DNA of 15,143 nucleotides from an uncultured Nitrososphaerota archaeon (GCA_963718895.1 CAVRAG010000011.1:1-15143); one strand, 5' to 3'; shown: positions 1 through 14,262, counted from the stretch's first letter. A program made the numbers and translations. Notes: generated from the letters alone by a model not told the origin.

Positions 1-246
1 TAACCGGCTGCGAAGAGTGCCGCCCATGTCGATAGCTAATAAACGGCGGTCATCTCTGCTTCCCTCCTCAATCTCCAGCAGCCGCAGCCAGAGGCTGGCC
101 TTCACAACGAAATCTTCAGCGTCTATCCAGTCGTCTTCTGTCACGATGAGTAGCTTCAGGGGCAGTGGTAGTCGACTCCTGGCGCTGAATTCTTTCAGCC
201 CCTTGATGCAAAGCCTCTTCTGAGTTTTTGAATCGAGCACCATCAT
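1..246 (-). CDS. Small hypothetical protein, open to the left edge (MMVLDSKTQKRLCIKGLKEFSARSRLPLPLKLLIVTEDDWIDAEDFVVKASLWLRLLEIEEG...)
   Basis: Hand translation of the minus strand from ATG 246 has no stop before position 1; absent from the ORF track because it has no stop codon. Divergent from the 343..1091 gene. From memory it resembles small helical proteins of archaeal integrative elements (unverified). Confidence 0.6.
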   Translation of the reverse strand, partial: MMVLDSKTQKRLCIKGLKEFSARSRLPLPLKLLIVTEDDWIDAEDFVVKASLWLRLLEIEEGSRDDRRLLAIDMGGTLRSRL

Positions 247-280
247 AGTCCCTCATTGGCTCTTGAGAAGAGCAGGACCT

Positions 281-321
281 ATTTAAGCGCTTATGACTCG
301 CCTCGTCATAGAAGCTTATAT
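281..321. promoter_or_regulatory. Divergent promoter region with palindromes
   Basis: TTATAT at 316-321 lies ~25 nt before ATG 343/346, and TTAAAT is on the minus strand at 281-286. Perfect palindrome TAAGCGCTTA (284-293) and inverted repeat TATGAC-N7-GTCATA (292-310). Confidence 0.5.
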
Positions 322-342
322 CGTTCTCTCTTCCACAGTCCC

Positions 343-1091
343 ATGATGCCGATATCAACGCTACTCGTCGATGGGAAAGAGTACCTCTACTTCTATTACA
401 ACGACCCGATGACCAATCGGAAGAAGAGCGTCTACTGCGGCCGCAGGGAAGCCCTGAAGCCGTACAGAAGGCGGAACGGTTCCAGTCGCGATATGAGAGA
501 GCCCAGAAGCAGAAGGACAGGTTCGCCGGGGTCTTAGGCCGACTATCGGCGCTGTCGGGAGAGATTGCAGGATACAGTACAGAGGAGCGGGAGTTTATCG
601 TCACGTGCCTTACCCAGACCTATCCTGACCTTTCCTGGGTCGAGAGCGACCAGATGGCGCTCTTCGGGAAGGTGAACGGGAACAAGCCGCTGGAGAGCCG
701 CCTGGCTCCTATCTACAGCAACCTGAAGGCGAGTTTGACGCGCGTTCATGACGTCACGGGGGAGCTGAGGACGCTGATCGAGTACATCGATTCTGACTGG
801 TATTATCGCGTCCAATACAGGAAGTCCGACGAGGGGAACGAAAAGCCCGAGCGGGACCCGTCTTGGAAGTATCACCTGAACGACGATCCCGAGAGCATGG
901 TGGTCGAGATTCTACGAGGGTGGCTGGATGCTTACGATCACGCGCAGAAACGACTGGATGCACTTGAGGAATTCTCTCGGGAGAGAAAACTTCAGGCGGT
1001 CATCGAGGCGTTGGCGCTCGTCGGGGTACGAAAGGCCATGAAGTATTCAAGGAAGATTATCGAAGAAGCGCTTGGTCTTGTAACTGGATGA
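343..1091 (+). CDS. Hypothetical protein of ~249 aa with an N-terminal 'GKEYLYFYY...KKSVYCG' beta-hairpin, putative DNA-binding; one frameshift
   Basis: Adding one G to the GGG run at 446-448 joins track ORF 256..537 (from ATG 343) to an open frame (GSPEAVQKAERFQSRYERAQKQK...) that continues without a stop into ORF 654..1091. Confidence 0.65.
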
Positions 1092-1175
1092 GCAATTAGC
1101 ATGAAACCATGATTCTTCATAAAGAAATATAATTCTGTGCTAACTGGCGGTCCGAATAGACCCGTGCTATCTGCA

Positions 1176-1215
1176 ACGTTCATATATACGAACATACGTT
1201 CATCTACGTGAATGT
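1176..1215 (+). promoter_or_regulatory. Tandem palindromic operator over the TATA box and start codon of the MNT-HEPN operon
   Basis: Two 20-nt units, acGTTCatatatacGAACat and acGTTCatctacgtGAATgt, each GTTC-N8-GAA(C/T). The first spacer is the TATA-like ATATATAC (1182-1189); the second arm overlaps ATG 1212. Confidence 0.7.
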
Positions 1216-1766
1216 TGAATCAGGACTTCGCCTTCATAGACAGGTTTTCTGTGGCGATACTGAGGCTTCTAAGGGTCTGATCCAATGAAGCGCTTCTACC
1301 AGAGGGAGGTGGCAAGGACTGCTGGGTGAGCGTGGGTAAGACCAACCAGGTACTGAAGGCGCTGGAAGAGAATGAACTTGTCACGAAGGAGCACGTGGGG
1401 AAGGTGGACCTCTACAAGTACAACCTGGCCGACGCTGCGGCACGTTCCCTGAAGGTGTTCTTCAACACGTCGGAGTTGAGGGTGCTGACCAAGAGCCTCG
1501 GAACACTCGATGGAACATCAAAGGTGGTTCTGTTCGGAAGCTGCGCCGAGGGAACTGACACGAAGGATAGCGATATCGACATCATCATCTTGACCCAGGA
1601 CAAGCGAGAAGCTACGGCAGCGGTTCAGCGGGCCGGACGTTCATCAAGCAGAAAGCTTTCACCGATTATTCTTGATCCACTGGAATTCAGCAGGTTGAAG
1701 AAGGACGACCTACCACTCTATGAGCAGGTCTCAAAGGGGATGACGCTTTGGCAGCGAGAGGAGTGA
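1212..1766 (+). CDS. wHTH-fused minimal nucleotidyltransferase (MntA-type antitoxin); two compensating indels in the 5' part
   Basis: GS-X10-DXD motif (FGSCAEGTDTKDSDID). The N-terminal HTH 'ILRLL(G)SDPMKRFYQREVARTAGVSVGKTNQVLKALEE' is restored by removing 1 nt near 1271-1275 and adding one G at 1324-1326. The ORF track shows only 1326..1766. Confidence 0.85.
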
Positions 1767-2227
1767 GCGCGGCACTCAAACGCCTTCTGGAACAGAGGAG
1801 ACTCCTGAAGGCAAGCTTGGGCGAGGAAGCAATCACGAAGGAGCTGGATGGGGCGACATACGACCTCCAACGTTCCAAGACCTCCCTCTCGGAGTCGGAT
1901 TACAAGTGGGCCACCATCAAGGGTTACTACTCCATGTTTCATGCGGCGAGGGCTCTTCTCTATTCGGCCGGCTACCGCGAACGAAGCCACGCCGCGTTGC
2001 TCACTGCGCTGAGGGAGTTGTACGTGAAACCGGGAACGCTGGCAGAGGACTTCTTGGATGATTTTGAGAACGCCATGAGCCTGAGAGAAGAAGCAGACTA
2101 TGCGATGAACTTCTCCGAAGACGGGTCAAGGAGGGTCGTGGGTGACGCTGGACGCTTCTTGCAAGCTGCGAAAGAATCGCTGAAATCGATGAGACAAACC
2201 AGAGACTCAGAAAGCCGAGCGGGATGA
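1763..2227 (+). CDS. HEPN domain protein (UPF0332/COG1895-like, R-X4-Y type)
   Basis: Motifs YYSMFHAARALL, SHAALL and REEADY. GTG 1763 overlaps the MNT stop (GTGA), suggesting translational coupling. Confidence 0.88.
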   Translation: MSAALKRLLEQRRLLKASLGEEAITKELDGATYDLQRSKTSLSESDYKWATIKGYYSMFHAARALLYSAGYRERSHAALLTALRELYVKPGTLAEDFLDDFENAMSLREEADYAMNFSEDGSRRVVGDAGRFLQAAKESLKSMRQTRDSESRAG

Positions 2228-2251
2228 CCGGAACCAATCGAGAAGGACGAA

Positions 2252-2347
2252 GGTCTGAGCTTCTCTGAGGATGGAGCTAAGGAGACGGTACAGGGTGCCC
2301 GCACATTCCTGACGAGAGCGAAGGTCGTTCTAAAGCTGGAAACCTGA
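2252..2347 (+). pseudogene. Orphan C-terminal helix of a second, paralogous HEPN gene
   Basis: GLSFSEDGAKETVQGARTFLTRAKVVLKLET* aligns without gaps to the HEPN end AMNFSEDGSRRVVGDAGRFLQAAKESLKSM. It is in the same frame, after the TGA at 2225-2227. Confidence 0.8.
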
Positions 2348-2402
2348 TCTCTTGCCGCTCTCGCCCTAAGGATATTACGGATCCTGTTAGCTATCGTTCC
2401 CT

Positions 2403-2600
2403 ATGAGCGTGAACGGGACATATCAGTTTGGGATTACCAACTCCTGGGGAGTGAGTAGCGTATCCCAGACCTACGACAACGTCGCCCACATTCCTCCGCC
2501 GCCGGACGAGGAGTACTTCCTGATGACCTTCTTTGGCTTGCTCGTGGTCGGGGTCTACTTCTTGGCGAAGATTTCGAGAAGGAAAAGACAATTGCATTAG
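2403..2600 (+). pseudogene. Probable 3' fragment of a C-terminally anchored surface protein
   Basis: Beta-strand-like segment (NGTYQFGITNSWG), Pro-rich linker, one TM helix and a basic tail. One extra T near 2397 extends it upstream (PKDITDPVSYRFP), but no signal peptide or 5' part is present. Confidence 0.45.
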
Positions 2601-2727
2601 GAATCAGAAAGGCTCACGGCTGTGTCTGACCAGAGGAATAGGTGGGGATGGCGCAAGTTGCAAATCCTTAGACCGAATGGATCGTTCGGATGGTTCTGAT
2701 AACCCTTCGGACTATTGAAATATCCGG

Positions 2728-3255
2728 ATGACTGACGGGCCATGCCCGCAATTGAAACTATGGATGATTGGGCTTGCCTGTGCGATTGGGCTAGCCCTTG
2801 GATTATATTTCCTAGGCGCCGGGATCTTCGACCTCTGTCATAGCATCGGGCCCATCCGGCCCAGCGCGTGTGCCTCTGGTCCTCTTTCGACGGAACAGGA
2901 TTCCTCCTTCGTAGTGATAGGAATCTCGCTCGCACTGGTCTCCCTGATAGTCCTGGTCTCAGTTGCCATAAGAGTGAGTCTCAGGGCGAGCGTCTGGGTG
3001 GTCTGGTTCGTCAGGTCAGTCTTCGTAATCGGAACATCCTTGGGAATCCTGATTTTCTTCGGCTCCTTCTCTGGTATTTGCGACCCATTTGGACCCTTTG
3101 GAACGACCGGAACGCTCTGCACCTCCTTCGACCCGTATGAAGCAATCGGGCCTTTACTCGCACTAATCTCTCTGGTCGGTTTAATCTATTCATTGAAGAC
3201 AACGAACCAACGAAGAGACGGAACAAAACTAAACAGTTCGGCCAAAAGCATTTAG
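2728..3255 (+). CDS. 4-TM membrane protein with two Cys-loop hairpins (C-x10-C, C-x12-C)
   Basis: Four hydrophobic segments. Loops CHSIGPIRPSAC and CDPFGPFGTTGTLC each lie between a TM pair. Confidence 0.75.
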   Translation: MTDGPCPQLKLWMIGLACAIGLALGLYFLGAGIFDLCHSIGPIRPSACASGPLSTEQDSSFVVIGISLALVSLIVLVSVAIRVSLRASVWVVWFVRSVFVIGTSLGILIFFGSFSGICDPFGPFGTTGTLCTSFDPYEAIGPLLALISLVGLIYSLKTTNQRRDGTKLNSSAKSI

Positions 3256-3291
3256 GATGAGAAGATTCGCATTGTTACGAAGGTCGAAACG

Positions 3292-3723
3292 ATGAACTTC
3301 TCGCGGCTCAGCCTGATACTCGTCGCGTTCGGAGCAGTCTCGTTCGTCCTGTGGGAGGAAGACGTCGCCATTCCGCTGAAACTGGCTCTGGTCTATTTCG
3401 GAGGGCTGGGAGTCTTTGGAGGCGGCCTCTTTGCCGTCATTGGCGCTCTTCAGAGGCGGAGGACTCCGAACGCGCGCTCCAACCTCCTCGTGGATGCTGG
3501 ATGGACGACGGTGTCGTTCGGACTGATAGCATCCATCGGGTCTTACCTCGTGCTGACCCAGACCAGGTGCTTTAGCCCGTTCCTGAGGGCCGGGAATTGC
3601 AATCTGGCCGGCTATTACGCGCCCATGTACGCAGGGCTCGCTTTAGCGGCGGCCGGTCTTGGCGTCGTCGTCTTCGGGAGACTTTTCAAGACGGTAGCCT
3701 CTTTGCGAAAACTCAGGCAGTGA
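3292..3723 (+). CDS. 4-TM membrane protein with a C-x9-C loop
   Basis: Four hydrophobic segments with a basic loop after TM2. CFSPFLRAGNC lies between TM3 and TM4. Confidence 0.75.
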   Translation: MNFSRLSLILVAFGAVSFVLWEEDVAIPLKLALVYFGGLGVFGGGLFAVIGALQRRRTPNARSNLLVDAGWTTVSFGLIASIGSYLVLTQTRCFSPFLRAGNCNLAGYYAPMYAGLALAAAGLGVVVFGRLFKTVASLRKLRQ

Positions 3724-3816
3724 CTTCCTTCGGTTTGGTCGTGAACAGCCTCTTCTCCTCGTCGCTGAGGAAGTGTAGAAAGGGCTCCCGTCTCCCTGAG
3801 TCCTCAACTCCAGGCC
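3713..3816 (-). pseudogene. Orphan 3' tail of a VirB4-like ATPase gene, copy 1
   Basis: Reads GLELRTQGDGSPFY(N/H)FLSDEEKRLFTTKPKEVTA* with one base added near 3774. Hand alignment gives about 54/77 identical nt with 6414-6489. Confidence 0.65.
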
Positions 3817-3859
3817 CCCGCTATTCGTCCCTCTTGCCACCAGTTGGGTCGCAATTCTC

Positions 3860-4432
3860 TCAGGAAGGCGTGTCCTGCATCTTCTTCCTGCTCATTTCCT
3901 CCAGCGCATTCAGGAGAATGTTGCCTACCGGCGTGAGCTCGTAGAGCTTCACGTTACCATAGGCGGTCTTCTCCTGCACCAGCCCGTACTTCAATAGGAC
4001 TTGGACGTGGTAGTCTATCGTGGTCCAGTCGAGCTCAAGGTCTCTGGCGAGCTGGAACCTGTCCTTCGGCGTGAGCAGCGATTTCAGGATCGTCGTCCTC
4101 GTCTCTCCACCCTTCATCTGCAGCAGGAGCTTGAACAAGCCCTGATCCAGACCTCGTCGCGACCAATTCGACTTTGCCCTCCCCCTCCATATCCACGCGC
4201 CGACTACGGCAGCCCAGCTTATCGGTACCAGCGCAATCGAGTGCGCCTGGAGTACCACCAGAGGAAGGCTGACGGGTGACGGCGAAATCGGAGTAGCTCC
4301 CGTTGAATTCGCGTTGTTCGGCGGGCCCGCCACCGGATGACCAAGCAATTGCAAGCCCAACAGCAAGGTGTTCAAGATTGCGAAGGCGAGAACCAGGTAG
4401 AGGACGATGCTGTACTTGCTCTGTCCCATCAT
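3860..4432 (-). CDS. Membrane-anchored winged-helix (ArsR-like) transcription regulator
   Basis: Two N-terminal TM helices around a Pro/Ser/Asn-rich loop, then GGETRTTILKSL...QLARDLELDWTTIDYHVQVLLKYGLV...YGNVKLYELT. Start is ATG 4432 or 4429, or GTG 4474. Confidence 0.8.
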   Translation of the reverse strand: MMGQSKYSIVLYLVLAFAILNTLLLGLQLLGHPVAGPPNNANSTGATPISPSPVSLPLVVLQAHSIALVPISWAAVVGAWIWRGRAKSNWSRRGLDQGLFKLLLQMKGGETRTTILKSLLTPKDRFQLARDLELDWTTIDYHVQVLLKYGLVQEKTAYGNVKLYELTPVGNILLNALEEMSRKKMQDTPS

Positions 4433-4477
4433 CGGTTGGTCTCGTCTCTTTTCCCGCCTAGTGATAAGAATCACGCC

Positions 4478-4741
4478 TCACTTGGGACGATTGAATCTTC
4501 CAAGAAATATCAGGCCTGAGCCGATGACGGCCAAAGAAACACCCAACCATAGAGGAAAGGAGTTCGATCCGAGATAGAATGGCAGTTGTAGATAGTATTC
4601 ACAGCCCTGAACGGGTACAGCCCCGGTAAGGTGCTCACAATCGTATACCAGCATATAAGTCTGCAAACCAAAAACGACGACAGAGACCGCGCCTACAGCT
4701 AACAATATGATACCTGAGAATTTGAGTCGGCTCTTCGTCAT
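4478..4741 (-). CDS. 2-TM hairpin protein with a C-x11-C loop (87 aa)
   Basis: TM - CEHLTGAVPVQGC - TM with basic termini. Its ATG is 1 nt after the upstream stop codon. Confidence 0.75.
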   Translation of the reverse strand: MTKSRLKFSGIILLAVGAVSVVVFGLQTYMLVYDCEHLTGAVPVQGCEYYLQLPFYLGSNSFPLWLGVSLAVIGSGLIFLGRFNRPK

Positions 4742-4742
4742 T

Positions 4743-5087
4743 TCAAGGCCGCTCTGCGAGGTTTTGCAAAGCCTTTGGCTGGTTGCTCGTCTTCGTAGGT
4801 TCGGATGGTCGTCGCACTATGTCAAGAAAGAATACAAGTGCGAAAGCAATTCCCGCCCAGAATAGGTAGTCCAGTGAGATGAGGCTCACATCATAAGAAA
4901 ATCCGCATCCGTTGAACGGGTTAGGAGTCCTACAGGGAGAGATTGGTGCGCTGTAGGTCAAAGGAAATCCATTGGAGGAGCCTTCGGGGGTCAGAGTTGC
5001 AAACGCGCTAAGGCCGAGAAACACCAAGCCCACAAGGCAGGCGGTGATAATCAACCGGGGCCTAACATCCATGTCTATCCCAACCAA
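4743..5087 (-). CDS. 2-TM hairpin protein with a GFPL motif and C-x8-C loop
   Basis: TM - GFPLTY...CRTPNPFNGC...DYLFW - TM. Start is TTG 5087 or ATG 5072. Confidence 0.75.
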   Translation of the reverse strand: MVGIDMDVRPRLIITACLVGLVFLGLSAFATLTPEGSSNGFPLTYSAPISPCRTPNPFNGCGFSYDVSLISLDYLFWAGIAFALVFFLDIVRRPSEPTKTSNQPKALQNLAERP

Positions 5088-5110
5088 CTTGACAAGAATC
5101 CGCGTTCATG

Positions 5111-5118
5111 TTATATAA
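5111..5118. promoter_or_regulatory. Palindromic TATA box TTATATAA between divergent genes
   Basis: Self-complementary octamer, 24 nt from TTG 5087 (-) and upstream of GTG 5155 / ATG 5170 (+). Confidence 0.55.
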
Positions 5119-5154
5119 TTTGTCCAGAGTCGTCAGGAATAACCCCATTAGACG

Positions 5155-5742
5155 GTGGAACCGCCCCAAATGCAGCTGACGAAATTGAAGAAGAACGCAG
5201 GAGTTGCTACGGCCGTTGTCGCGTTGATTGCCTTGATCGTAATTGGCGGGGCTACGGCAGCCTTTGTGTTGACAATGCAACCAAGTCCAGCCTCATCCGC
5301 GACCTCTAGCTCGACAACCATTCCTTCCCTCGATAGCACTCAGTCAACTGGAAGCGTCACTTCGAGTACATCGTGCAATCAACCACCTTATCTCGTCAAG
5401 CTTGCCTCCCAGGTCGAGCAAACACAGAACTTCACCCAGCAATCGCGCGGCCTGAGCTACGTGCTGGCATATGGCGACAATCAGAGCGCCGAAACGGGAA
5501 CAGTGAACGGCAAACCAACCTACTCTCTACCCGAGACAAGTTTGGCGTTCTACTCCTACGGCACAACTTCAACTGCGGTTTGCTCCTACAATGTTGGGAC
5601 TGAGGGCGTTGTCGGAGCCCTCTGGGTCCAAGTCCCAATCAACGCCGACGGTTCCTATGACCTCGCTAACATGTCCATCTACTTCACGCCCGGAGTCTTC
5701 TCCAACAGCACGTCAATCACTCAATCGACCAGCAGCGTCTAG
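5155..5742 (+). CDS. N-terminally anchored Ser/Thr-rich surface (glyco)protein
   Basis: Basic KLKKNAG followed by a long hydrophobic helix, a Ser/Thr linker, and a domain with two Cys and N-x-S/T sequons (NFT, NQS, NMS, NST). Start may be ATG 5170. Confidence 0.8.
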   Translation: MEPPQMQLTKLKKNAGVATAVVALIALIVIGGATAAFVLTMQPSPASSATSSSTTIPSLDSTQSTGSVTSSTSCNQPPYLVKLASQVEQTQNFTQQSRGLSYVLAYGDNQSAETGTVNGKPTYSLPETSLAFYSYGTTSTAVCSYNVGTEGVVGALWVQVPINADGSYDLANMSIYFTPGVFSNSTSITQSTSSV

Positions 5743-5804
5743 TCGATAACTTCAGATTTCGAAAGAAATCGCATGAATACGTGGATTACGTAATTTTGTG
5801 GATC

Positions 5805-5861
5805 TTTCTTCGACTTACTGAACAATCTTCTCTCTTCGCGTGAAAGCCTTACTAACCAGGG
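5805..5861 (-). pseudogene. More diverged orphan VirB4-like tail, copy 3
   Basis: PWLVRLSREERRLFSKSKK versus PFY.FLSDEEKRLFTTKPK. Same strand and same relative position (convergent to a + strand cargo gene) as the other copies. Confidence 0.45.
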
Positions 5862-5884
5862 CCTCGGCAAATGCAAAGAGGAAC

Positions 5885-6294
5885 TTGAAGCCACATTCGT
5901 TGATTGCTCTCTTGATTGCTCTGGGGTATCCGTCCTCGCTGGTTTCGAGTTCATCTTTTTCGGAAATGAGATTCTGGGTCCCTTCCTGGTTCTCACCAGC
6001 GCGATTGTCACGCTGGCCGCCATTAGGCCGCATTGGAAAACGCCGTCGACCTCACTCGGGCTTGCCGTTTTTCTGGGCGGGACATTTGCATCTCTCTATC
6101 TAATCTTCGGTAGGTGCGCTCCTGAGGGCGGACTTCTTCCAAGCGGGGTGTGCTACATTTACACTTCGAACAATCTGTGGTTTGCCACCGACTCCGTCGT
6201 CGCACCCCTGTTGGGCATTGTCGTTCTTGTCGCAGGTCAGATCAAGATGAGTCGGAGACAATCCTACTCGCAAAAATTCAGTTCGCTAACTTGA
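5885..6294 (+). CDS. Hidden 4-TM membrane protein (~136 aa) with a C-x11-C loop; one frameshift
   Basis: TTG 5885 gives MKPHSLIALLIALG; adding one G at 5923-5926 continues VSVLAGFEFIFFGNEILGPFLVLTSAIVTLAAIRPHWKTPSTSLGLAVFLGGTFASLYLIFGRCAPEGGLLPSGVCYIYTSNNLWFATDSVVAPLLGIVVLVAGQIKMSRRQSYSQKFSSLT*. Not in the ORF track. Confidence 0.72.
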
Positions 6295-6418
6295 TGAAAC
6301 GGCGAATCCCAGAGTTAGCGAGGCCAGTTCCTTCAATATCCTTTGCATAATCCTTATTGGGGCGAAGGCGTCATGGAAACCTCTTTCTGAACAGGCCCCT
6401 AAGAAATCCTATCAAAAC

Positions 6419-6574
6419 TCAAGCGGTGACTCCCTTCGGCTTCGTGGTGAAAGTTTCCTCTCCGCGTCACTCGAAAAATTATAGAATGGAAGCGTCCTCT
6501 TGGGTCACTAGAATTCCCTGTCCTATCTTCGCATTTACGACGAACTTCCACTCTCCATCGCCGAGTTCGTTCAC
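6419..6574 (-). pseudogene. Orphan 3' tail of a VirB4-like ATPase gene, copy 2 (longest), abutting the integrase stop
   Basis: NELGDGEWKFVVNAKIGQGILVTQEDA/PFYNFSSDAERKL/FTTKPKGVTA* with indels near 6490 and 6450-6452. It fits the L..GE..F...A..G(E/Q)G.L...S..E..L.TT.P pattern I recall for VirB4-like ATPase C-termini. Confidence 0.7.
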
Positions 6575-7881
6575 GTTGGAAGTTTAACCACAACCTCCGA
6601 GTCCGGTAGCTGCGCGACATACTCCCATCCTTGGCTGACGTGCGACTTCAACTCGCTGGCCGGGATTATCTTCTGCCTGTTCCCGTTGTTGGTCATGACC
6701 CCGAGCAACCTCCGACGCAACAGGTCCTGGAAGTCTTCGTTGGTCATCTTGTTTAGGTCCAGCTTCTCGAGTTCCTCTTCCTTGGCGCCTGCCGCAAGAA
6801 GCAGCTGCTCCCTGAGCACGTTCTTCAGGTTCTCTTGGGATATTCCCTTCTGCTTCTCAGTGGACAGAAGAGGCTCGCACTTCCTGTAAGCGTCTCGCAT
6901 CTTCTCTATAGCGTCCTGGGTTATCCCCTTGTTCACGGTGTACGTCGCTTCGATATCTCCCACGTGGCCCATCCAGAATTCCCTCCAATCTCTTATGATC
7001 AGGCCGTCTCCCTCGGCCATCATCATCCTAACGTCGAAGTATCTGCGCAGGACGTAGGGCCGCCAATCGAACCCCGCCTTCCTGATCGGTTTCCTGATGA
7101 TGTCTCCAATGTTTATCGAGGTGATATGCTTGCGCCCCACATCTTCAGGCCTGACGTACTTTCCCTTCCTCTCGTGGAACGTGATCACCGGCGATTCTGG
7201 TAGGAGGTCTTCTCCCTTTCGCAATCTCCACTCTAGATATTCTTGTAAATATTGACAGCCCTCCTGCGCCAAAAATGTGAAGTACTGATGACCGGCCTTG
7301 CTGAGGGTCTTCCTTGCGATCACCATGGTCGGCATCTTCGTTACGATTACCTTGCCGTTCTCGACCTTGACCTCGGGGAGGTCTTTCATCTTCAGGCCGT
7401 CGTCACCCGTGTAGTTACCGAGGACCTCGATACGGCACCCGCCAAAAGCGACCAGCGAGCAGGCGACCTTCGCCCTCAACTCCGCGGCGTTGAGTATCTT
7501 CTTCAGCTCTTCTTGCGTCGGCGGCCTTTCGTTCTCCACCTTCGTGGGCTGTGACCGCGGTATCTTGATTGCCCTCGTGATCTGGGTATCGTTCCAGGCC
7601 AGCCAGCTCTTCAACGGCTTCACGATGTTGGAGATGTAATTCCCGCTCCTCCCCTCCTTCTCAAGCGTTCCAATCACATCCAAGAGGAAGTCCGTGGCTT
7701 GCTTCTGGCTCATCTTAGCGATCTTTTGCGGTGTCGTCTCGAACCTCGCGCAGACGAATCCTATCCTGCGGAACCATTCCTGGGCGGTGACGAGGCTCCC
7801 TCTCGTCACGTTGTCGTACCATCTCCGGAAGTCCTTGTCATCGAGCATCTGCTTGTACTTCGAGCGTCCTAGGTCCTTCAT
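6571..7881 (-). CDS. Tyrosine recombinase / site-specific integrase (436 aa, intact)
   Basis: Catalytic set: R in GGCRIEV, YVLRRYF (Y at the first position of HxxR), WMGH and Tyr in EATY. N-terminal core-binding-like region and a ~90-aa C-terminal extension. Adjacent to a tRNA. Confidence 0.93.
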   Translation of the reverse strand: MKDLGRSKYKQMLDDKDFRRWYDNVTRGSLVTAQEWFRRIGFVCARFETTPQKIAKMSQKQATDFLLDVIGTLEKEGRSGNYISNIVKPLKSWLAWNDTQITRAIKIPRSQPTKVENERPPTQEELKKILNAAELRAKVACSLVAFGGCRIEVLGNYTGDDGLKMKDLPEVKVENGKVIVTKMPTMVIARKTLSKAGHQYFTFLAQEGCQYLQEYLEWRLRKGEDLLPESPVITFHERKGKYVRPEDVGRKHITSINIGDIIRKPIRKAGFDWRPYVLRRYFDVRMMMAEGDGLIIRDWREFWMGHVGDIEATYTVNKGITQDAIEKMRDAYRKCEPLLSTEKQKGISQENLKNVLREQLLLAAGAKEEELEKLDLNKMTNEDFQDLLRRRLLGVMTNNGNRQKIIPASELKSHVSQGWEYVAQLPDSEVVVKLPT

Positions 7882-7890
7882 CGCGCCCTA

Positions 7891-7919
7891 GTTACGCTAG
7901 ATTCGCGTATAAACGTAAC
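7891..7919 (-). promoter_or_regulatory. Integrase promoter: TATA box inside an inverted repeat
   Basis: TTTATA on the minus strand at 7913-7908, 27-32 nt before ATG 7881, bracketed by GTTACG (7891-7896) and CGTAAC (7914-7919). Confidence 0.6.
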
Positions 7920-7937
7920 GGTTGTGAACTAAGTTGA

Positions 7938-8034
7938 TGGTGGGGCCGGTGAGATTTGAACTCACGGTCGCCTGCACTTTGGCCCGCTACCGGGCCCCCA
8001 AGCAGGAATCTTGACCATACTAGACTACGGCCCT
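7938..8034 (-). tRNA. tRNA-Pro(GGG) with encoded CCA and a 19-nt intron
   Basis: Hand-folded cloverleaf: acceptor GGGCCG/CGGCCC, D stem GTCT/AGAT, anticodon stem CCTGC/GCAGG, loop TT-GGG-G|T (anticodon at 7999-7997), T arm GTGAG-TTCAAAT-CTCAC, ACCA end. Confidence 0.95.
7977..7995 (-). other. Canonical 37/38 tRNA intron forming a bulge-helix-bulge
   Basis: Intron GCCCGGTAGCGGGCCAAAG. TTGG (32-35) pairs with CCAA, bulges are GG|G and AG|T, and the outer helix is CCCG/CGGG with a GTAG loop. Confidence 0.92.
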
Positions 8035-8246
8035 AGTATGCGGGGCCTTTACGACACGGGTTCTTGTTCTTTTCTGATGAGATTGACACCATAGATCGCC
8101 GCCGGCTTGGGCCTGGGGTGCGGTGGAGGATTGAGTAGAGGCATCGTCGACAGAGATGGTATCGGAACGCCCAGTGCACCAAGGAACGAATCCGTCGTTT
8201 ACAGGCACAGGTTTTAGTAACCCTGAGCGCATCCACTCCGATCACC

Positions 8247-8597
8247 TTGCCTGATGACTACGTTGGCATCGGAAAAGGCGAGAGGGTGCTCGTCAGCCAA
8301 CCCAAAGTTGTTCCTGACAGGCTCCTCGAGAATCTCTCGACAGCTTTCAAGTCCAACGGAGATGTCGAAGAGGCCTTCTTTGGCCAGATTGACCTCGCCT
8401 CAAGACCTGACGGCTCCCACCTACTAGTTCAGGTGAAGTTTCGAGAGAGTTCCAAAGGAGGTCTGGCTTCTCTCGATTCAAGCATCAGAAGGGCTATCGA
8501 AGGTTCGCCCGGATTAGAATCGCCCGTGGATTTCGCGGTGGTGACTGACGGGCCATACCCTGGGACTAGGAGTTTCTACAAGCGCGAAGGCTTCTGA
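8247..8597 (+). CDS. Stand-alone SseB C-terminal-domain-like protein
   Basis: Pattern 'GERVLVSQPKVVPDRLLENLSTAF...VEEAFFGQI...HLLVQV' recalls SseB_C; 116 aa. Recognised by eye only. Confidence 0.6.
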   Translation: MPDDYVGIGKGERVLVSQPKVVPDRLLENLSTAFKSNGDVEEAFFGQIDLASRPDGSHLLVQVKFRESSKGGLASLDSSIRRAIEGSPGLESPVDFAVVTDGPYPGTRSFYKREGF

Positions 8598-8650
8598 CCA
8601 GAGACAGCGTCGCTCACACTCCTTAAATCGAGCGGACCGAATTCCGGCCC

Positions 8651-9646
8651 GTGGTCTATTTCATTCTGTCCGACGACCTCACGGGAGCAGCCGGGGTCGC
8701 GTCGATGGTGGACCGCTCAGCCGCCGTCGCTGTGAATCTGGACAGGTTTGACCGGAAGCTCGCCGGGGAGTTCGCCTGCATCGTCCTGAACCTGGAGATT
8801 CGGGAGAAGACCGGCGCGGAGGCAGCCCGGAGGCTTTCGCGGGCTATCGACGCCGTCGGCGAGAACCCGGTGGCGGTCAGGATGGACAGCGCGCTGCGGG
8901 GTCGCTTGCAGATGCTCGTGGGGACGATGCTCGAGAGGGGGAACGTACTGGTCACAGACACCATTCCCGAGTATGAGAGGCGCACGGTGTCAGGCAAGAC
9001 GTTCATCGGCCCTCAGCAGGGAGACATCGGCTCTCTGCTCTCTCCGCTGCGAGGCAAGTGGAAGGACCGGAGCATCACCATCGCCGATTCCGAGACCTAT
9101 GAAGACCTCGACGCCCTGGCCCAACGTTGCATCGCGGATGGTCTGATTCCCGTCGATCCGGGTCCGCTCGTGGCGAGGGTGGCCCGGGGCAGGCTCGGGC
9201 TTGGCGCGCCTGCCCTTCGCAGGGCTGGCAGGGAGGTCTCGAAAGTGGCCTTCGTGGTGGGCACCAGGGATCCCAGGAGCCTTGAGCAGGTCCGCCACAT
9301 GCGCAGCCTCGGGTTCCCGGTGCAGAAGCCCTGCGTCAAGAGTGCCGATGGGGTGGACGTCTTCTCGTTCTCCATTGGGAAGGAAGGACCTCTCGTGACG
9401 CGGGCTTTCCTGAATCATCTGACACACTACGACGCGCTGGTCCTCAGCGGCGGCGCCACGGCCAACTTCGTCCTCGAGCGATCCGGATTCAGCTATCTGG
9501 TGAGCGAGGGAGAGGTGCAACCGCTCGTCTCATCGAGCAGGGTGAAGGGGGGCCTGTTCGACGGGAAGACGGCGGTTCTGAAAGGAGGGTTTATCGGCGA
9601 CGAAGACGCGTACAAGACGATCTTGGACTGGTTGAGAAGAGAATGA
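8651..9646 (+). CDS. Four-carbon acid sugar kinase family protein (DUF1537; DtnK/OtnK-like)
   Basis: DDLTGA, DSALRG, IADSET, SGGATA and LKGGFIG motifs. ATGA overlap with pdxA. TTAAAT at 8623-8628 upstream. Confidence 0.85.
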   Translation: MVYFILSDDLTGAAGVASMVDRSAAVAVNLDRFDRKLAGEFACIVLNLEIREKTGAEAARRLSRAIDAVGENPVAVRMDSALRGRLQMLVGTMLERGNVLVTDTIPEYERRTVSGKTFIGPQQGDIGSLLSPLRGKWKDRSITIADSETYEDLDALAQRCIADGLIPVDPGPLVARVARGRLGLGAPALRRAGREVSKVAFVVGTRDPRSLEQVRHMRSLGFPVQKPCVKSADGVDVFSFSIGKEGPLVTRAFLNHLTHYDALVLSGGATANFVLERSGFSYLVSEGEVQPLVSSSRVKGGLFDGKTAVLKGGFIGDEDAYKTILDWLRRE

Positions 9647-10590
9647 TCGGGGTAACACTCGGCGACCCGGCGGGCATTGGCCCCGAGATAGTCGCAAAGT
9701 CCCTACCGAGCCTCAAGAGAGAGCAGCTGGTCCTGATAGGCAATCACGAGAACTTCCTGCGCGTCCTGTCCGACCTCCGCCTCGACGAGAAGAAGATCCG
9801 CGGCTACTCGTTCGTCGACATCCCAGGGGAGGGGGTGACCTACGGCCGCGTCCAGAAGGCGGCGGGGCAGATCGCCGTCCGGAGCATCGAGAAGGCGGTA
9901 GAGATGGCGATCAAAGGCGAGGTCGAGTCGATATCGACCGCCCCCATAAACAAGGAGGCGATAATGATGGCAGGATCGAAGTACGTAGACCACACGGCTA
10001 TGCTCTCCGGCCTCACTGGCTCGAGGGAGAACTTCACGGTCTTCGAGACGGGCGCGCTGCGCATCTTCTTCATGACCAAGCACGTCTCCCTCTCGAAGGC
10101 TCTCGTACAGATCACGAGGAAGCGCGTGCGCTCCTCGATCTTCGAAGCGAACGAGTCCCTCGCCATGCTCGGCGTGAAACGAAGGAGGATCGCCGTGGCT
10201 GCGCTGAACCCGCACGGGGGCGACGGAGGGCTCTTCGGGAGGGAGGAGATCGAGACGATAGCGCCGGCCATCAGGGACGCACAGAAGGAGCTGGACGTCT
10301 CCGGACCCTACCCAGCAGACTCCGTCTTCCACAGAGCCTCCGAGGGGGCGTTCGACATCGTCGTCGCGCTCTATCACGACCAGGGCCACATAGCGGCCAA
10401 GATGCTCGACTTTCACCGGACGGTGAGCCTTAACCTCGGCCTGCCGTTCCTGAGGACCTCGGCCGACCATGGGACGGCGTTCGACATCGCGGGGAAGGGT
10501 CTGGCCAACCCGGTGAGCATGGTCGAGGCCGTCAAGAAGGCCGCCAAGTATGGAAGGAGCTACCGGGCGAGGCGCGCCGAGCTCAGATGA
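9643..10590 (+). CDS. pdxA: 4-hydroxythreonine-4-phosphate / D-threonate-4-phosphate dehydrogenase (PdxA2-type context)
   Basis: GDPAGIGPE, TAPINKE, DHT, LNPHGGDGGLFG, YHDQGH and RTSADHGTAFDIAGKG. Confidence 0.95.
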   Translation: MIGVTLGDPAGIGPEIVAKSLPSLKREQLVLIGNHENFLRVLSDLRLDEKKIRGYSFVDIPGEGVTYGRVQKAAGQIAVRSIEKAVEMAIKGEVESISTAPINKEAIMMAGSKYVDHTAMLSGLTGSRENFTVFETGALRIFFMTKHVSLSKALVQITRKRVRSSIFEANESLAMLGVKRRRIAVAALNPHGGDGGLFGREEIETIAPAIRDAQKELDVSGPYPADSVFHRASEGAFDIVVALYHDQGHIAAKMLDFHRTVSLNLGLPFLRTSADHGTAFDIAGKGLANPVSMVEAVKKAAKYGRSYRARRAELR

Positions 10591-11359
10591 CTATCCCGAC
10601 GGTCTTCAGCAGGCCTGCGTAGTTTCCGTCTGACCTGTCCCTCTTGTACTCCTTCAGCGCCTCGAGGACCGCTTCCTGCCTCCTGATTCCCACGAGCCGC
10701 TTGACGAACGGGGCGCACCTCCCGCCGATGAGCAGGTACTGAGACGCCGTCGTGACGTTCTTCGGCGCTCTCCTCTGGCTCGCGGACTCGAAGTCGATGA
10801 TGTAGGGGATGTCGCCCGCCATGATCACGTGCTTTCTCAGGTCGCTGAGCTGGCCGTGGTCCAGGTCGATGAGGTCAAGCTTCCTGCACTGGTTCAGCAG
10901 CAGGTGCAGTATCTCGCGGGCCCGACCTCTCTTCCCCACCCCGCTTATCGATCTTAGGTGTTCCTCAAGGTCCTCGCCTTCGACCAGCTGCATGACCATG
11001 AAGTCCCTCGTCGCTGCGAAGGCCTGCGCGCCGACTCCGACCCTGTTCGCGATCTCGGTGAGCCTGAACTCCTCGAGCATGCTCTCCCTGTTGGCGTCGG
11101 TGCGCCTTATCTTCAGGGCATGGACCCTCCCATCGATTATCCCTCTGACGACCACGCTCACGGTGCCGATGCCGACGAGACCGAGCCTGCCTATCTTCGT
11201 CCTTCCCTCGAAGACGACCTCCTCGACTCCCAGCACTCCGAGCTGATCTATCCTGGACCGCGCCGCCTTCAGGTCCAGGCTGGGATAGGTGAGGACGTTG
11301 AGGTAAGGAGTCCTCGCGAACTCGTCCAGCCTAATCCGTTCCGATGCTGTCTGCGACAA
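10583..11359 (-). CDS. Archaeal RIO-like Ser/Thr kinase (COG2112-like)
   Basis: GIGTVSVV, ALKIRR, E...ANRVGVG, DHGQLS and IIDFESAS. Lies directly downstream of cca. Confidence 0.85.
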   Translation of the reverse strand: MSQTASERIRLDEFARTPYLNVLTYPSLDLKAARSRIDQLGVLGVEEVVFEGRTKIGRLGLVGIGTVSVVVRGIIDGRVHALKIRRTDANRESMLEEFRLTEIANRVGVGAQAFAATRDFMVMQLVEGEDLEEHLRSISGVGKRGRAREILHLLLNQCRKLDLIDLDHGQLSDLRKHVIMAGDIPYIIDFESASQRRAPKNVTTASQYLLIGGRCAPFVKRLVGIRRQEAVLEALKEYKRDRSDGNYAGLLKTVGIVI

Positions 11360-12666
11360 ATTCCTTTACTCCCTCGTCCAGCCATCCCTCCTCCGCCATC
11401 TCGCGGAGGATAGCCCTACCGGTCACGACTCTACCGCTCTTCCGGATGGCGGCGGCCACCTCGTGCGAGGCCCCCACCCTGTCAATCTCCGACGAGCGGA
11501 GCCCGGCGAGCAGGCTCTCCAGCTCGGTCTGCTTCCGTTCCTGGAGCAGGTGCACCTTCCCGTCCTCTCCGACCCAGACGAGCTCCGACCTAGCCCTGTT
11601 CTTCGAGATGAACCTCTTGACCTCCGCCGGCATCTCGACGCCCGGCCCGACACGCTCCTCCAGATCTGAGAGGCGTTCAGTCCCCGGGAGCAGTATTATG
11701 GCGCTCCTGTCAGAGTTGTTTGAGGCGGCTGAGGCCCTGATCGATCCTGAAGCCACGTTCCTCGGCGTACCTCACCAGCTGCTTCGTGCTCCTCTTGAGC
11801 TCTCCCCAGAGCGTGTCCTCGCTGAGGGGCCTGTGGTCGAAGCGGACCACATAGAGCCTCCCGACGAGGGCCCTCCTGACGCTTCTCCTGATGCCCGTGA
11901 AGTATGCGAGGTCCGGCCCCTCGAGGAAGGCTCTTGAGGCGAGGGTCATCTTCGCCACCGTCTCCCTGGAGATCGCCCTGGCGAGCTCTCGATCCATGTC
12001 GATTGGGTCCTTCAGGCTCAGGAGCGTCTCTCCGGCTGGTTTCAGGTCAGCGAAGAAGCGGAGGACCCCCTCGAAGCCGCCGTGATTGTGGACGAGCACC
12101 TCGGCCGCGTACCCGCTGAAGCCCTCGTTCTCAATCTCGGCTCCGTAGACCCCGACCGTCTTCATGAAGAGCTTCAGGAGCCTGACCTGCGTCCTCCTCT
12201 CCTCGTCCAGGTTTCTCTTCACGAACTCGACGTGGTACGGAGACCTGTCCGCGGCGCTCCTCCACTCTCCCGGCCTGACGTCGTAGCAGGGCACGATGTT
12301 CACCTTGACTCCGTCGACGGTCGCCTCCGTGTACGGGTGCTGGGCGTACTTCTTCCCGTGTCGGTACCCGCGGGCCGCTTCCCTGCCTACCTTGAGTCCG
12401 ACCGCCTCGAATCTCTCGCCGTCCGAATCTTCGGCGAATCTCAGGAAGACGTCGATGTCGGCTTCACCGCCCACGCGAGGAGACAGCCACGTCCCCTTCG
12501 CGAACGAACCACCCAGGATCACATCCTTGATCTCCCCGAAGGGAAGCGAAGCGGCCTCCACCTTCTTGAGGACCTTCTTGGCCACGCGATTGAGCCTGAC
12601 CTCTTCCTGAGGGCTCGGGATGACCCTCCTCCCCGCTTTCAAGAGGACGCTCTGGAGCTTTGTCAC
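11331..12666 (-). CDS. cca: Archaeal class I CCA-adding enzyme; one frameshift near 11742
   Basis: GGSFAKGTWL...DIDVF, YAQHPY, SAADRSPYH and GFSGY. Track ORFs 11710..12666 and 11331..11756 join as ...EERGFRI/IRASAASNN... Confidence 0.93.
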
Positions 12667-13225
12667 CCTAGAGCGTACTCCTTCACATCGGTGTATGTGG
12701 GACCGGCAGACGAGAGCACGCTCGATTTTAGCTTCAGGCTGGTTATCCTCGTCCCCCCGAGGTCACGACGGGAGTTCGACTGGAGGAGCGAGGTCAGAGC
12801 CCCGCTGTTGAGAGGGCTCCTCACTCTGGCCAGCGTAATGTGAGGGTGAAAGTCGTGGTCCTCCGGTTTCCCGACCCCTTCGAGGGCGGCGATGAAGGCC
12901 GAGGCGACACTGTTGATTGCCTGTTCGTTTTCGCGGGCGACACCGGCCCAGACGACCCTCGGCCGCCTCGGGTCAGGGAATGCACCGATCCCTCTCACGA
13001 GAACGTCGAAGCTGGACAACCTCAGTCCGCTGAGCCTTCTGTCTACCTCCTTAACTGTGTCCTCCGAGACCTCTCCCAGGAACTTCACCGTGAAGTGGAG
13101 GTTGTCCCTTCCGACGACGTTCAGATCTGCCGCGTGTCCTCTTGAGCTCCTCCTCGACGATCAGCAGCTTCTCGACGACTTCCTGCGAGACCTCAAATGC
13201 GAGAAATGCGCGCGTTCGTCTTCAC
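12663..13225 (-). CDS. thpR: RNA 2',3'-cyclic phosphodiesterase (2H family, 2'-5' RNA ligase); indels near 13130 and 13215
   Basis: The N-terminus RAFLAFEVSQEVVEKL is in an adjacent frame. Two HxT motifs (HFTVKF, HITLAR), plus GAFP...PRVVWAGV and GPTY. Confidence 0.9.
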
Positions 13226-13250
13226 CGCTGCTGCTTGCTCTCCCGGCGCG

Positions 13251-13284
13251 TTATTAAGCAGAATCCATTGAAAGACGCTTATTA
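13251..13284. promoter_or_regulatory. Divergent TATA-like boxes for the thpR-cca-kinase and P-loop kinase-DUF54 units
   Basis: TTAATAA (-) at 13257-13251, 26-32 nt from GTG 13225, and TTATTA (+) at 13279-13284 upstream of ATG 13317, in a GC-rich background. Confidence 0.5.
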
Positions 13285-13316
13285 CCACCCCTCCGACGGC
13301 GCTGAGGCATACCAAG

Positions 13317-13874
13317 ATGTTGATCATAGCCATCACAGGGATGCCAGGGGCTGGCAAGTCCACGGTGGCGCAGGCGCTGGGCGGGATCGGGCTGAGGAGG
13401 ATCGCGATGGGGGACATGATTCGGGAAGAGACCGGCCGGAGGGGTCTCCCGCTCGACGACAAGAACATGGGGATGGTGATGAAGGAGCTGAGGGGCACCT
13501 ACGGCGCCGGAGCGGTCGCCGAGCTCTGCCTCCGCAGCATCCAGTCGAAGGAAGGCGAGGCGGCGGTCGTGGTAGACGGGATAAGGTCGGTCGCGGAGAT
13601 AGAGATCTTCAGGAACGCAGGAGAGGTGAAACTGCTGGCCGTCCTCGCCTCCCCGAAGAGGAGGTTCGAGCTTCTCACCGCCAGAGGGCGGACCGACGCC
13701 CCTCCGGACCTCGAGAGCTTCAGAGCCAGGGACGAGAGGGAGCTGTCCATCGGGATAGGGAACGCGATATCTCTGGCCGACGAAGCGATCGTGAACGAGC
13801 ACATCACTCCCGACGAGCTGACCGACGTGGCGCTCAGTATCGCGGCCGGATGGATGAAGCCGCTTGGAAGATAG
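13317..13874 (+). CDS. UPF0200 / dephospho-CoA-kinase-like P-loop kinase
   Basis: GMPGAGKS Walker A, MGDMIRE, VVDGIRS, RGRTD and RDERELSIGIG. Confidence 0.88.
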   Translation: MLIIAITGMPGAGKSTVAQALGGIGLRRIAMGDMIREETGRRGLPLDDKNMGMVMKELRGTYGAGAVAELCLRSIQSKEGEAAVVVDGIRSVAEIEIFRNAGEVKLLAVLASPKRRFELLTARGRTDAPPDLESFRARDERELSIGIGNAISLADEAIVNEHITPDELTDVALSIAAGWMKPLGR

Positions 13875-14262
13875 CCCGGCGGTCGTCATCGTCCTCCACG
13901 CGGCGGTCTCACCCAGCGAGGATCCCGCGAAGGTCCTGGCGGCGGCGCAGAACGTCCTAGGGGAGTGCGCACACAGCGTCGAAGAGGGGGAGGCAGGGGT
14001 CACTCTCCGCTCGGCTGACCTGAACTGCCTCCGGAAGGTCCACGACCAGCTGAGGGACAGGCACGTGAGGGCTGCCGCGAACAGGCTCCTCCTGCGGATG
14101 CGAGACGGCCGAAGGGTGACGGTCCTCCTCAACAGACAGGCTGCGACGGCGGGTGTCGTGGCGCTGTGCACCAGCGCCACCGAGTCGCCGCTGGGCCCTC
14201 TCGTCCTGGAGATTGAGAGCGACAACCCTGAACGAGTGATCGACTGGCTGACCGTCTACTGA
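13864..14262 (+). CDS. DUF54 / UPF0201 putative RNA-binding protein
   Basis: PSEDPAKV, LNRQAA..G, ESPLGP and C-terminal IDWL. Usual neighbour of UPF0200. Confidence 0.85.
   Translation: MEDSPAVVIVLHAAVSPSEDPAKVLAAAQNVLGECAHSVEEGEAGVTLRSADLNCLRKVHDQLRDRHVRAAANRLLLRMRDGRRVTVLLNRQAATAGVVALCTSATESPLGPLVLEIESDNPERVIDWLTVY

Follow-up and report, generated by a model that had tools for sequence, protein, structure and literature searches.

Cysteine-paired loops on small membrane hairpin proteins in the cargo of an integrated element of an uncultured Nitrososphaerota archaeon

This study concerns a 15,143-bp stretch of DNA (the window; GCA_963718895.1 CAVRAG010000011.1:1-15143) from an uncultured Nitrososphaerota archaeon. 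It is the whole of contig C11 of a 3.13-Mb, 11-contig archaeal metagenome-assembled genome, here called G000. Positions 2403..6294 hold the cargo of a cryptic, plasmid-like integrative element. In this archaeon of peat and soil, the element sits at the 3' end of a tRNA-Pro gene, and its cargo encodes a series of small membrane proteins with an unusual feature. A pair of cysteines encloses a Pro/Gly-rich loop of 8–12 residues, both protein ends lie inside, and the pattern recurs in at least five unrelated, rare families. Our confidence in this architecture and its island context is high. The observation had been made by a first-pass annotation of the window and is solid, whereas the conclusion drawn there, that the loops are hypervariable, was wrong.

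The integrase, the tRNA-Pro and a step in GC content together indicate that the hairpin genes sit inside an integrated element. The GC content is 0.49–0.57 at positions 1–8,000 compared to 0.59–0.67 in the host part, and it steps from ~0.53 to ~0.63 past the tRNA-Pro. Genes H, A and B lie on the plus strand and are followed by C, D and E, which form one minus-strand row with E first and gaps of 1–45 nucleotides (nt), then by F and G on the plus strand, and finally by the integrase (Table 1). Gene H is located upstream of A in 3 loci, and the order H-A-B recurs on contig C5 of the same genome and in genome G007. The divergent genes E and F share a TATA-like palindrome within 5088..5169, which lies ~35–45 nt upstream of their likely ATG starts at 5072 and 5170.

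Cysteine-paired loops and their confinement to islands

All six Cys loops reported for the five small membrane proteins A, B, D, E and G were found as quoted, and each contains Pro and Gly. A Kyte-Doolittle scan placed a hydrophobic helix on both sides of every loop, although the third helix of B was weak (1.38, against a threshold of 1.6 for a transmembrane (TM) helix). The far ends of the helices are basic, as had been stated. Lys and Arg (K+R) cluster opposite the loops, with counts of 3 / 0 / 3 in the N-tail, outside segment and C-tail of D, and of 1, 2 and 4 inside versus 1 and 0 outside in A. From this charge distribution the loops are predicted to lie outside, in agreement with the placement by the positive-inside rule in the first-pass annotation. 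Pilins of the VirB2/TraA/CedA1 type are helical hairpins as well, with a basic connecting loop that faces the cytoplasm and with their termini outside. We rejected a pilin of this type, since the charge pattern here is the opposite one, with basic termini and a loop without K/R.

The loop of G was likewise present, but the boundaries proposed for the gene (5885..6294) did not hold, as these 410 nt mix two frames and their TTG lies in a frame other than that of the loop. The frame of the loop itself (5794..6294) has no ATG, GTG or TTG before the loop. The alignment of the homologue P0032 switches frame between 5843..5917 and 5926..6255, which points to a frameshift within 5918..5925, at a run of G. 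Another gene of the contig that looks split encodes the CCA-adding enzyme (11331..12666), which consists of two ORFs (open reading frames) here and of one ORF of 444 amino acids (aa) on contig C9. Since this gene and the o256/o654 pair also look split, the frameshift in G may be an assembly indel rather than decay. The apparently split genes in the contig suggest either indel errors or decay of this haplotype.

In this genome, the Cys-loop pattern is above chance and confined to island regions. A greedy ORF set of the 3.1-Mb genome held 4,167 ORFs, including 502 with at least two TM helices, and yielded 1,391 hairpin loops. The motif C-x6-14-C was found in 9/1391 of these loops, one of the nine being rich in K/R and therefore probably cytoplasmic. 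Among the hairpin loops low in K/R, the motif was present in 8/27 in island regions versus 0/656 elsewhere. The first-pass annotation had named an equal frequency of the motif in non-island membrane proteins as a result that would refute its proposal, and this was not observed. Furthermore, an ORF with the motif was located within 3 kb of 3/10 paralogues of the regulator C and 2/8 integrases, versus 1.9% of random sites. These two groups were defined independently of the motif, although the enrichment events are not independent of each other, as the C5 island is a paralogue of the window island. The genome scans missed B and G of the window, and the copy of A on C5 escaped the greedy scans but was picked up when all ORFs were scanned.

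Two homologues of VKOR and one DsbA-like thioredoxin-fold protein are encoded by the host; no DsbB was found in its genome. The presence of VKOR and the DsbA-like protein makes disulfides on the outside plausible. As a separate observation, a 4-TM protein of 191 aa whose outside loop has the form C-x14-C is encoded away from any recognised island (G000:C1:38336-38911), at 1.2 kb from a VKOR homologue (C1:40114-40518).

Conservation, rarity and modular spread

The Cys pairs are kept in homologues. Three Cys of A were present in 16/16 sequences and the fourth in 15/16, while the pairs were complete in D (8/8), E (7/7), G (5/5) and B (4/4), where for B paralogues alone were examined. The spacing differs in one B paralogue with a C-x3-C loop and in one A relative with C-x8-C. 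Column entropy was 0.37 in the second Cys loop of A, 0.83 in its first loop and 0.62–0.98 in its helices. For D, the loop had an entropy of 0.50 versus 0.72–0.76 in the helices, and for E 0.49 versus 0.89–0.95. The cytoplasmic tails were the most variable parts.

The ratio of nonsynonymous to synonymous substitutions (dN/dS) points in the same direction. Overall pairwise dN/dS was 0.3–0.45, which indicates real genes under purifying selection. In A and D, dN/dS was 0.16–0.30 and 0.15, respectively, in the outside loops and 0.20–0.35 in the helices, compared to 0.5–1.0 in the inside segments. These values bear on the first-pass proposal of a single membrane scaffold that displays hypervariable, disulfide-constrained peptides. 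It was suggested by the complete difference between the loops of the five proteins, and two further points are in line with it: in the G family the flanks are fixed while the stretch enclosed by the Cys pair differs in sequence and in length (9–11), and loop length shifts in single members of A and B. However, the loops of A, D and E are as conserved as the helices or more so, and are the most conserved parts of these proteins. Moreover, the five families show no detectable homology, so that the loops differ because unrelated families were compared. Neither the hypervariability nor the common scaffold was borne out, and hypervariable display is hardly tenable as an explanation.

The dissimilarity of the five proteins noted at the outset was confirmed by profile-profile comparison, in which hhalign gave probabilities of 0.3–28% among the five families; on these values the idea of a common superfamily was dropped. 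The sole exception to unrelatedness involves another island protein of 154 aa, whose second hairpin can be aligned to the first hairpin of A such that both Cys match up (33% identity, E 1e-4), at a weak hhalign probability of 45%. In line with the first-pass annotation, which knew of no named family, no match over threshold was obtained for A, B, D, E, F, G or H in Pfam, NCBIfam, PHROGs or PADLOC. The NCBIfam and PADLOC scans at E 0.1 returned far sub-threshold rows only, with 13–17 bits versus cut-offs of at least 37. A sequence search of the PDB with profiles A1-A3 gave no meaningful match. In the ESM Atlas, A reached at most 0.88 against unnamed bacterial clusters and E 0.91–0.93 against unnamed, mostly archaeal clusters, values that serve as leads only.

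The distribution of the hairpin families is sporadic. Searches of billions of proteins retrieved 18 relatives of A, each at least 59% identical, 7 of D, 6 of E and, in a representative set of 1.84 billion proteins, 4 of G. Strong matches of A occurred in 2/61 related genomes, or in 5/61 at E 0.01, while E was present in 4/301 and D in 5/301 sampled genomes of the order.

The hairpins behave as modules that occur alone, in tandem or fused to other proteins. The short relatives of G are stand-alone 2-TM hairpins related to its second hairpin, and the E relative P0027 carries an additional hairpin at its N-terminus, again with a Cys loop. In another genus, an E-like hairpin forms the N-terminal anchor of a 662-aa protein (L019:8737-10725, G106), which continues with a third TM helix and a Cys-rich ectodomain of ~530 aa and lies in an island beside a tRNA-Ser. 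A multi-TM protein of 281 aa from another family (L020:1791-2636, G127) terminates in an E-like hairpin. Neither the 662-aa nor the 281-aa protein gave a family match. Nor do the genes form an obligate set: A was found without B, C, D and E in all six loci that were examined of 10 metagenome loci. Clusters of further, different Cys-loop hairpins were present in other genomes of the family and in other genera.

The tethered regulator and possible roles of the hairpins

Protein C is encoded among the hairpins and consists of a TM hairpin, with a Pro-rich outside loop without Cys, followed by a MarR/ArsR-type winged helix-turn-helix (wHTH) domain. An AlphaFold2 (AF2) model of C has helices at 18–45 and 71–96 and the wHTH, with a pLDDT of ~80, at 123–201. 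Foldseek matched this model to MarR/ArsR folds, with AspA (4rs8_A) at TMt 0.84 and with SmtB, CadC and CzrA among many wHTH matches. The wHTH matches in Pfam, NCBIfam and PADLOC were weak, and those to ArsR/CmtR in NCBIfam (E 0.003–0.009) were below cut-off. The C family had 11 matches in G000, and its members often lie beside small, N-anchored, Cys-containing secreted proteins. Probably, C regulates or senses in the same membrane neighbourhood as the hairpins.

The similarity of C to ArsR-type proteins might indicate metal handling as in Mer or Cop systems, where the Cys pairs would bind a thiophilic metal and C would be an ArsR/SmtB-type metal sensor. This would fit small proteins of 2–4 TM helices with Cys pairs beside a wHTH with weak ArsR/CmtR similarity, as well as the Foldseek matches of C to SmtB, CadC and CzrA. 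MerT, MerF and MerE carry a vicinal Cys pair within the first helix, and are linked to a metal reductase or to a regulator with Cys. By contrast, C has no Cys at all, the cysteines of the hairpins are 8–12 residues apart in outside loops rather than vicinal in a helix, and the Pfam scan found no reductase, ATPase or chaperone in the island. Metal handling is highly improbable.

Another possibility is signalling, in which the hairpins would be the outside-sensing partners of C and binding in the membrane would control the release or activity of the regulator, in the manner of a one-component-like transmembrane switch. Several gene neighbourhoods favour this explanation. E, D and C are closely spaced in one row behind the TATA-like box, and the C family is expanded. 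C-like genes adjoin A and B in the window and on contig C5, A only in G007, and D in the window and in G020, where the copy is 32% identical to C. On contig C4, a 187-aa Cys-loop protein follows a C paralogue. However, A occurs without C in locus L009 of G007 and in the six metagenome loci that were examined, D occurs without C in L044 and L045, and an ORF with the motif lies within 3 kb of only three of the ten C paralogues. A complex prediction that paired residues 15–115 of C with D returned no answer (score 0.00) and counts neither way. Overall, signalling seems an unlikely explanation for the hairpins.

The best explanation of the data as a whole, although a tentative one, is that the hairpins are element cargo providing disulfide-stapled epitopes, each with one partner, of the immunity or exclusion type. 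The Cys pair would be oxidised by VKOR/DsbA-type machinery of the host, and the disulfide would staple the loop into a rigid, protease-resistant epitope at the membrane surface. Each hairpin could then act as an autonomous module whose conserved loop binds one specific partner. In this way, the element might give its host 'gatekeeper' proteins whose targets, bound at the outer face, would be incoming viruses, transfer apparatuses or toxins that act on membranes. The nearest parallels are small immunity and entry-exclusion proteins in the membrane that bacterial plasmids encode. By analogy with known systems, a protective function in immunity or exclusion is possible, but taken by itself it is rather doubtful.

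Several points weigh against these epitopes. None of the families is linked to a gene for a toxin, a receptor or a transfer function. The disulfide is one that we infer, and the topology comes solely from hydropathy and charge counts. An AF2 model of A built from 16 sequences has four helices, but its confidence is low (pLDDT 53.9, with the loops below 50). The outside loops of B are not better conserved than its helices, as dN/dS was 0.40–0.61 versus 0.23–0.56. Two of the island regions used in the motif counts were delimited after hits had been seen, and the greedy gene calls are crude. The genome is 80.5% complete with 5.4% contamination, and contains haplotype duplicates. Finally, islands that carry A with near-identical loops reside together in the same genome, with two in G000 (C11 and C5) and two in G007, which argues against A excluding its own kind of element.

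Comparison with known systems shows both similarities and differences. Entry and surface-exclusion proteins of conjugative plasmids and integrative conjugative elements, as described for EexC-TraG and Sfx in the text of PMC11493245, are also small membrane proteins on a mobile element, expressed from the resident element and specific in their recognition of an incoming partner. They differ from the hairpins in that there is no sequence relation, that the window contains no transfer apparatus and that two A islands reside together; nor is a disulfide loop a known feature of exclusion proteins. Membrane proteins for superinfection exclusion by phages are likewise element-borne and small, and recognise an incoming partner.

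Acquired interbacterial defence (AID) arrays of orphan immunity genes resemble the island in that unrelated small protective genes lie beside a recombinase on a mobile island (bioRxiv 10.1101/471110). Yet, these arrays are bacterial and mostly encode soluble immunity proteins against toxins of the type VI secretion system, while the island described here encodes membrane hairpins and has no known toxin system.

Claudins, connexins and tetraspanins have four TM helices, both ends inside and two outside loops with paired Cys, and A has the same outline. However, A has no Pfam or PDB match, its loops are far shorter, and nothing suggests common descent.

The type of island is already known, and it is also established that small membrane proteins abound there. 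They are enriched in archaeal 'dark matter islands', where a part in conflict and communication has been proposed for them (Makarova et al., 2014, PMC4158269). The text of that paper describes small, fast-evolving and narrowly spread genes for membrane or secreted proteins, often on integrated elements, much as in the window. It differs in that no recurrent Cys-pair hairpin is described, and the word 'cysteine' occurs 0 times in it. In the literature searched, subscription journals and supplements aside, we found no description of a disulfide-loop hairpin that recurs in this way, is restricted to islands, spreads as a module and is linked to an expanded family of tethered regulators.

A bolder generalisation, which we consider unlikely at present, is that a 'disulfide-noose transmembrane hairpin' is a mobile mix-and-match module of archaea, with the stapled loop as specificity determinant. 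Such modules might form orphan immunity or exclusion arrays beside recombinases, or interchangeable sensors for the wHTH family. If true, this would amount to an undescribed surface recognition system in non-cultured Nitrososphaerota and, in the immunity version, to an archaeal counterpart of the bacterial acquired-defence arrays. Many of the genes on archaeal mobile elements that still lack an explanation encode small membrane proteins, and a both-ends-inside hairpin with an invariant outside Cys pair offers a simple rule for one subset of them. The mobile elements and viruses of soil and peat Nitrososphaerota are almost unknown. If the loops prove to be specific epitopes, they would be the first candidate determinants of surface immunity, exclusion or sensing in these archaea. 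If not, our results still add five new protein families, to be annotated together with an expanded family of tethered regulators.

The integrated element and its neighbourhood

The features of the window are listed in Table 1. The tRNA-Pro is the predicted integration target and marks the island border, at 57 nt from the start of the integrase gene. The integrase had no Pfam match at E 0.01. We found no att-like direct repeats within 1..8300, where the contig ends inside the element. Integrase paralogues occur at seven further loci of the genome, and 5/7 of these lie beside tRNA genes.

Table 1. Features of the 15,143-bp window, in order of position
Feature	Position	Strand	Remarks
Low-GC island	1..~7937		left end runs off contig
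o1, left island end	1..246	-	runs off contig
o256 + o654, left island end	256..537 + 654..1091		jointly match one 247-aa gene of the sister element (C7)
MNT nucleotidyltransferase	1326..1766	+	Pfam Polbeta 7.4e-10, NTP_transf_2 1.1e-9; PADLOC PDC-M05A 8.6e-14
HEPN protein	1748..2227	+	Pfam HEPN 1.4e-13; PADLOC PDC-M05B 2.1e-4
H, 65 aa, single-pass	2403..2600	+	N-out, PPPP, TM, RRKR tail
A, 175 aa, 4-TM, two outside Cys loops	2728..3255	+	C37-x10-C48 at 2836..2871; C118-x12-C131 at 3079..3120
B, 143 aa, 4-TM	3292..3723	+	Cys loop C93-x9-C103 at 3568..3600
C, membrane-tethered winged-helix regulator	3860..4474	-	likely start internal Met near 4429-4432
D, 87 aa, 2-TM hairpin	4478..4741	-	Cys loop C35-x11-C47 at 4601..4639
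E, 2-TM hairpin	4743..5087	-	likely start ATG 5072; C52-x8-C61 at 4905..4934
F, N-terminally anchored, Ser/Thr-rich, 2 Cys	5155..5742	+	likely start ATG 5170; no family match
G, 4-TM, frameshifted	5840..6294	+	Cys loop C-x11-C at 6115..6153
Tyrosine-recombinase integrase, 436 aa	6571..7881	-	phrog_1 E 2.7e-8; NCBIfam XerA 2.1e-8, below cut-off
tRNA-Pro(GGG) with intron	7938..8034	-	ARAGORN; integration target, island border
Ordinary host genes	8,250-15,143		PdxA, CCA-adding enzyme, LigT, kinase, RNase Z-like protein

One integrase paralogue belongs to a sister element on contig C7 (G000:C7:463384-483290, L022), which is bounded by an 18-bp exact repeat of the tRNA-Thr region ~20 kb away. Its cargo includes a 793-aa TraG/VirD4/HerA-like ATPase with a C-terminal wHTH, an FtsX-type ABC transporter and a PIN-RHH pair, and it too encodes many small membrane proteins. 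Paralogues of o1, o256 and o654 adjoin the integrase of this element (tblastn), and these three ORFs gave no family match in the Pfam, PHROG and NCBIfam scans. No capsid or packaging genes were found in the C7 element, and neither the window nor the sister elements had a PHROG structural match.

These features are similar to those of the cryptic integrated elements (CIE) of Thaumarchaeota (Krupovic et al., 2019, PMC6563490). According to the text of that paper, such elements combine a tRNA-adjacent tyrosine integrase with mostly unknown cargo, toxin-antitoxin genes included, and lack viral hallmark genes, as in the window; their size is at most ~20 kb, as in the sister element (PMC6563490). 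They differ in that the paper text describes no Cys-loop hairpin proteins (PMC6563490), that the host here belongs to another, uncultured lineage, and that the element of the window is cut by the contig end.

The cargo could also be taken for that of a pleomorphic, pleolipovirus-like provirus or a vesicle-transmitted plasmid, with the hairpins as structural proteins of the membrane and F as the spike. Among the structural proteins of spindle-shaped and pleomorphic archaeal viruses, small ones with two helices are typical. The many small membrane proteins, the N-anchored, Ser/Thr-rich F, the integrase and the lack of capsid genes would all be compatible with this explanation. However, searches of the IMG/VR viral contigs with A1, A3 and the integrase found no relatives, the hairpins have no PHROG match, the genes occur singly in varied non-element contexts, and the TraG/VirD4-like ATPase of the sister element is plasmid-like. 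An envelope or vesicle role is quite unlikely. The single IMG/VR match of A2 (L036) was discarded as spurious, being a non-membrane ORF that overlaps a gene on the opposite strand.

The overlapping MNT and HEPN genes (1326..2227) form a pair of toxin-antitoxin type, and PDC-M05A and PDC-M05B are candidate defence families of PADLOC. With this module nearby, the hairpins might instead be membrane-damaging effectors, such as holin-like, type-I-toxin-like or abortive-infection proteins. Class II holins have two TM helices with both ends inside, and are encoded in a lysis cassette with an adjoining endolysin. As small hairpins with both ends inside and basic tails, D and E fit this outline. Yet, a conserved outside disulfide loop is no feature of such toxins, and the island has five to six different hairpins in a row and no lysin or antitoxin partner for them. 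In addition, PADLOC and PHROG gave no match for the hairpins, and purifying selection is strongest in the loop and not in the helices. A damaging role of the hairpins is very unlikely.

Two other contigs match the window in the manner of haplotype duplicates, C9 over 6419..13952 at 96.6% and C6 over 11134..15143 at 99.5%. C9 shares the tRNA-Pro of the window and encodes a 93%-identical integrase, with different cargo to its left that includes an MFS transporter and PadR. This difference in cargo between C9 and the window indicates that the population carries alternative cargos at one site. A low-depth contig from a peat run joins position 3685 to 6429 via 37 other letters and omits C-D-E-F-G, although the evidence is weak, as the shorter side spans 23 letters. 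If this junction is real, C to G would be a separate cassette.

The closest complete relative that we found is OY969807.1, from the same genus. Near-identical fragments of the window were present in peat and soil metagenomes, in small shares. In four DNA runs from peat and soil, contigs matched the window only in fragments, and the uncovered parts carry no information. No RNA datasets holding 2403..6294 were listed.

Two further observations concern contig C8 of the same genome. Beside another integrase paralogue (G000:C8:612717-644024), ARAGORN reported a tRNA-Asp with a 554-nt 'intron', which could be a real large intron or an artefact of an integration site. Another island of unassigned small ORFs on this contig contains a group II intron reverse transcriptase/maturase with HNH (L023:2320-4074).

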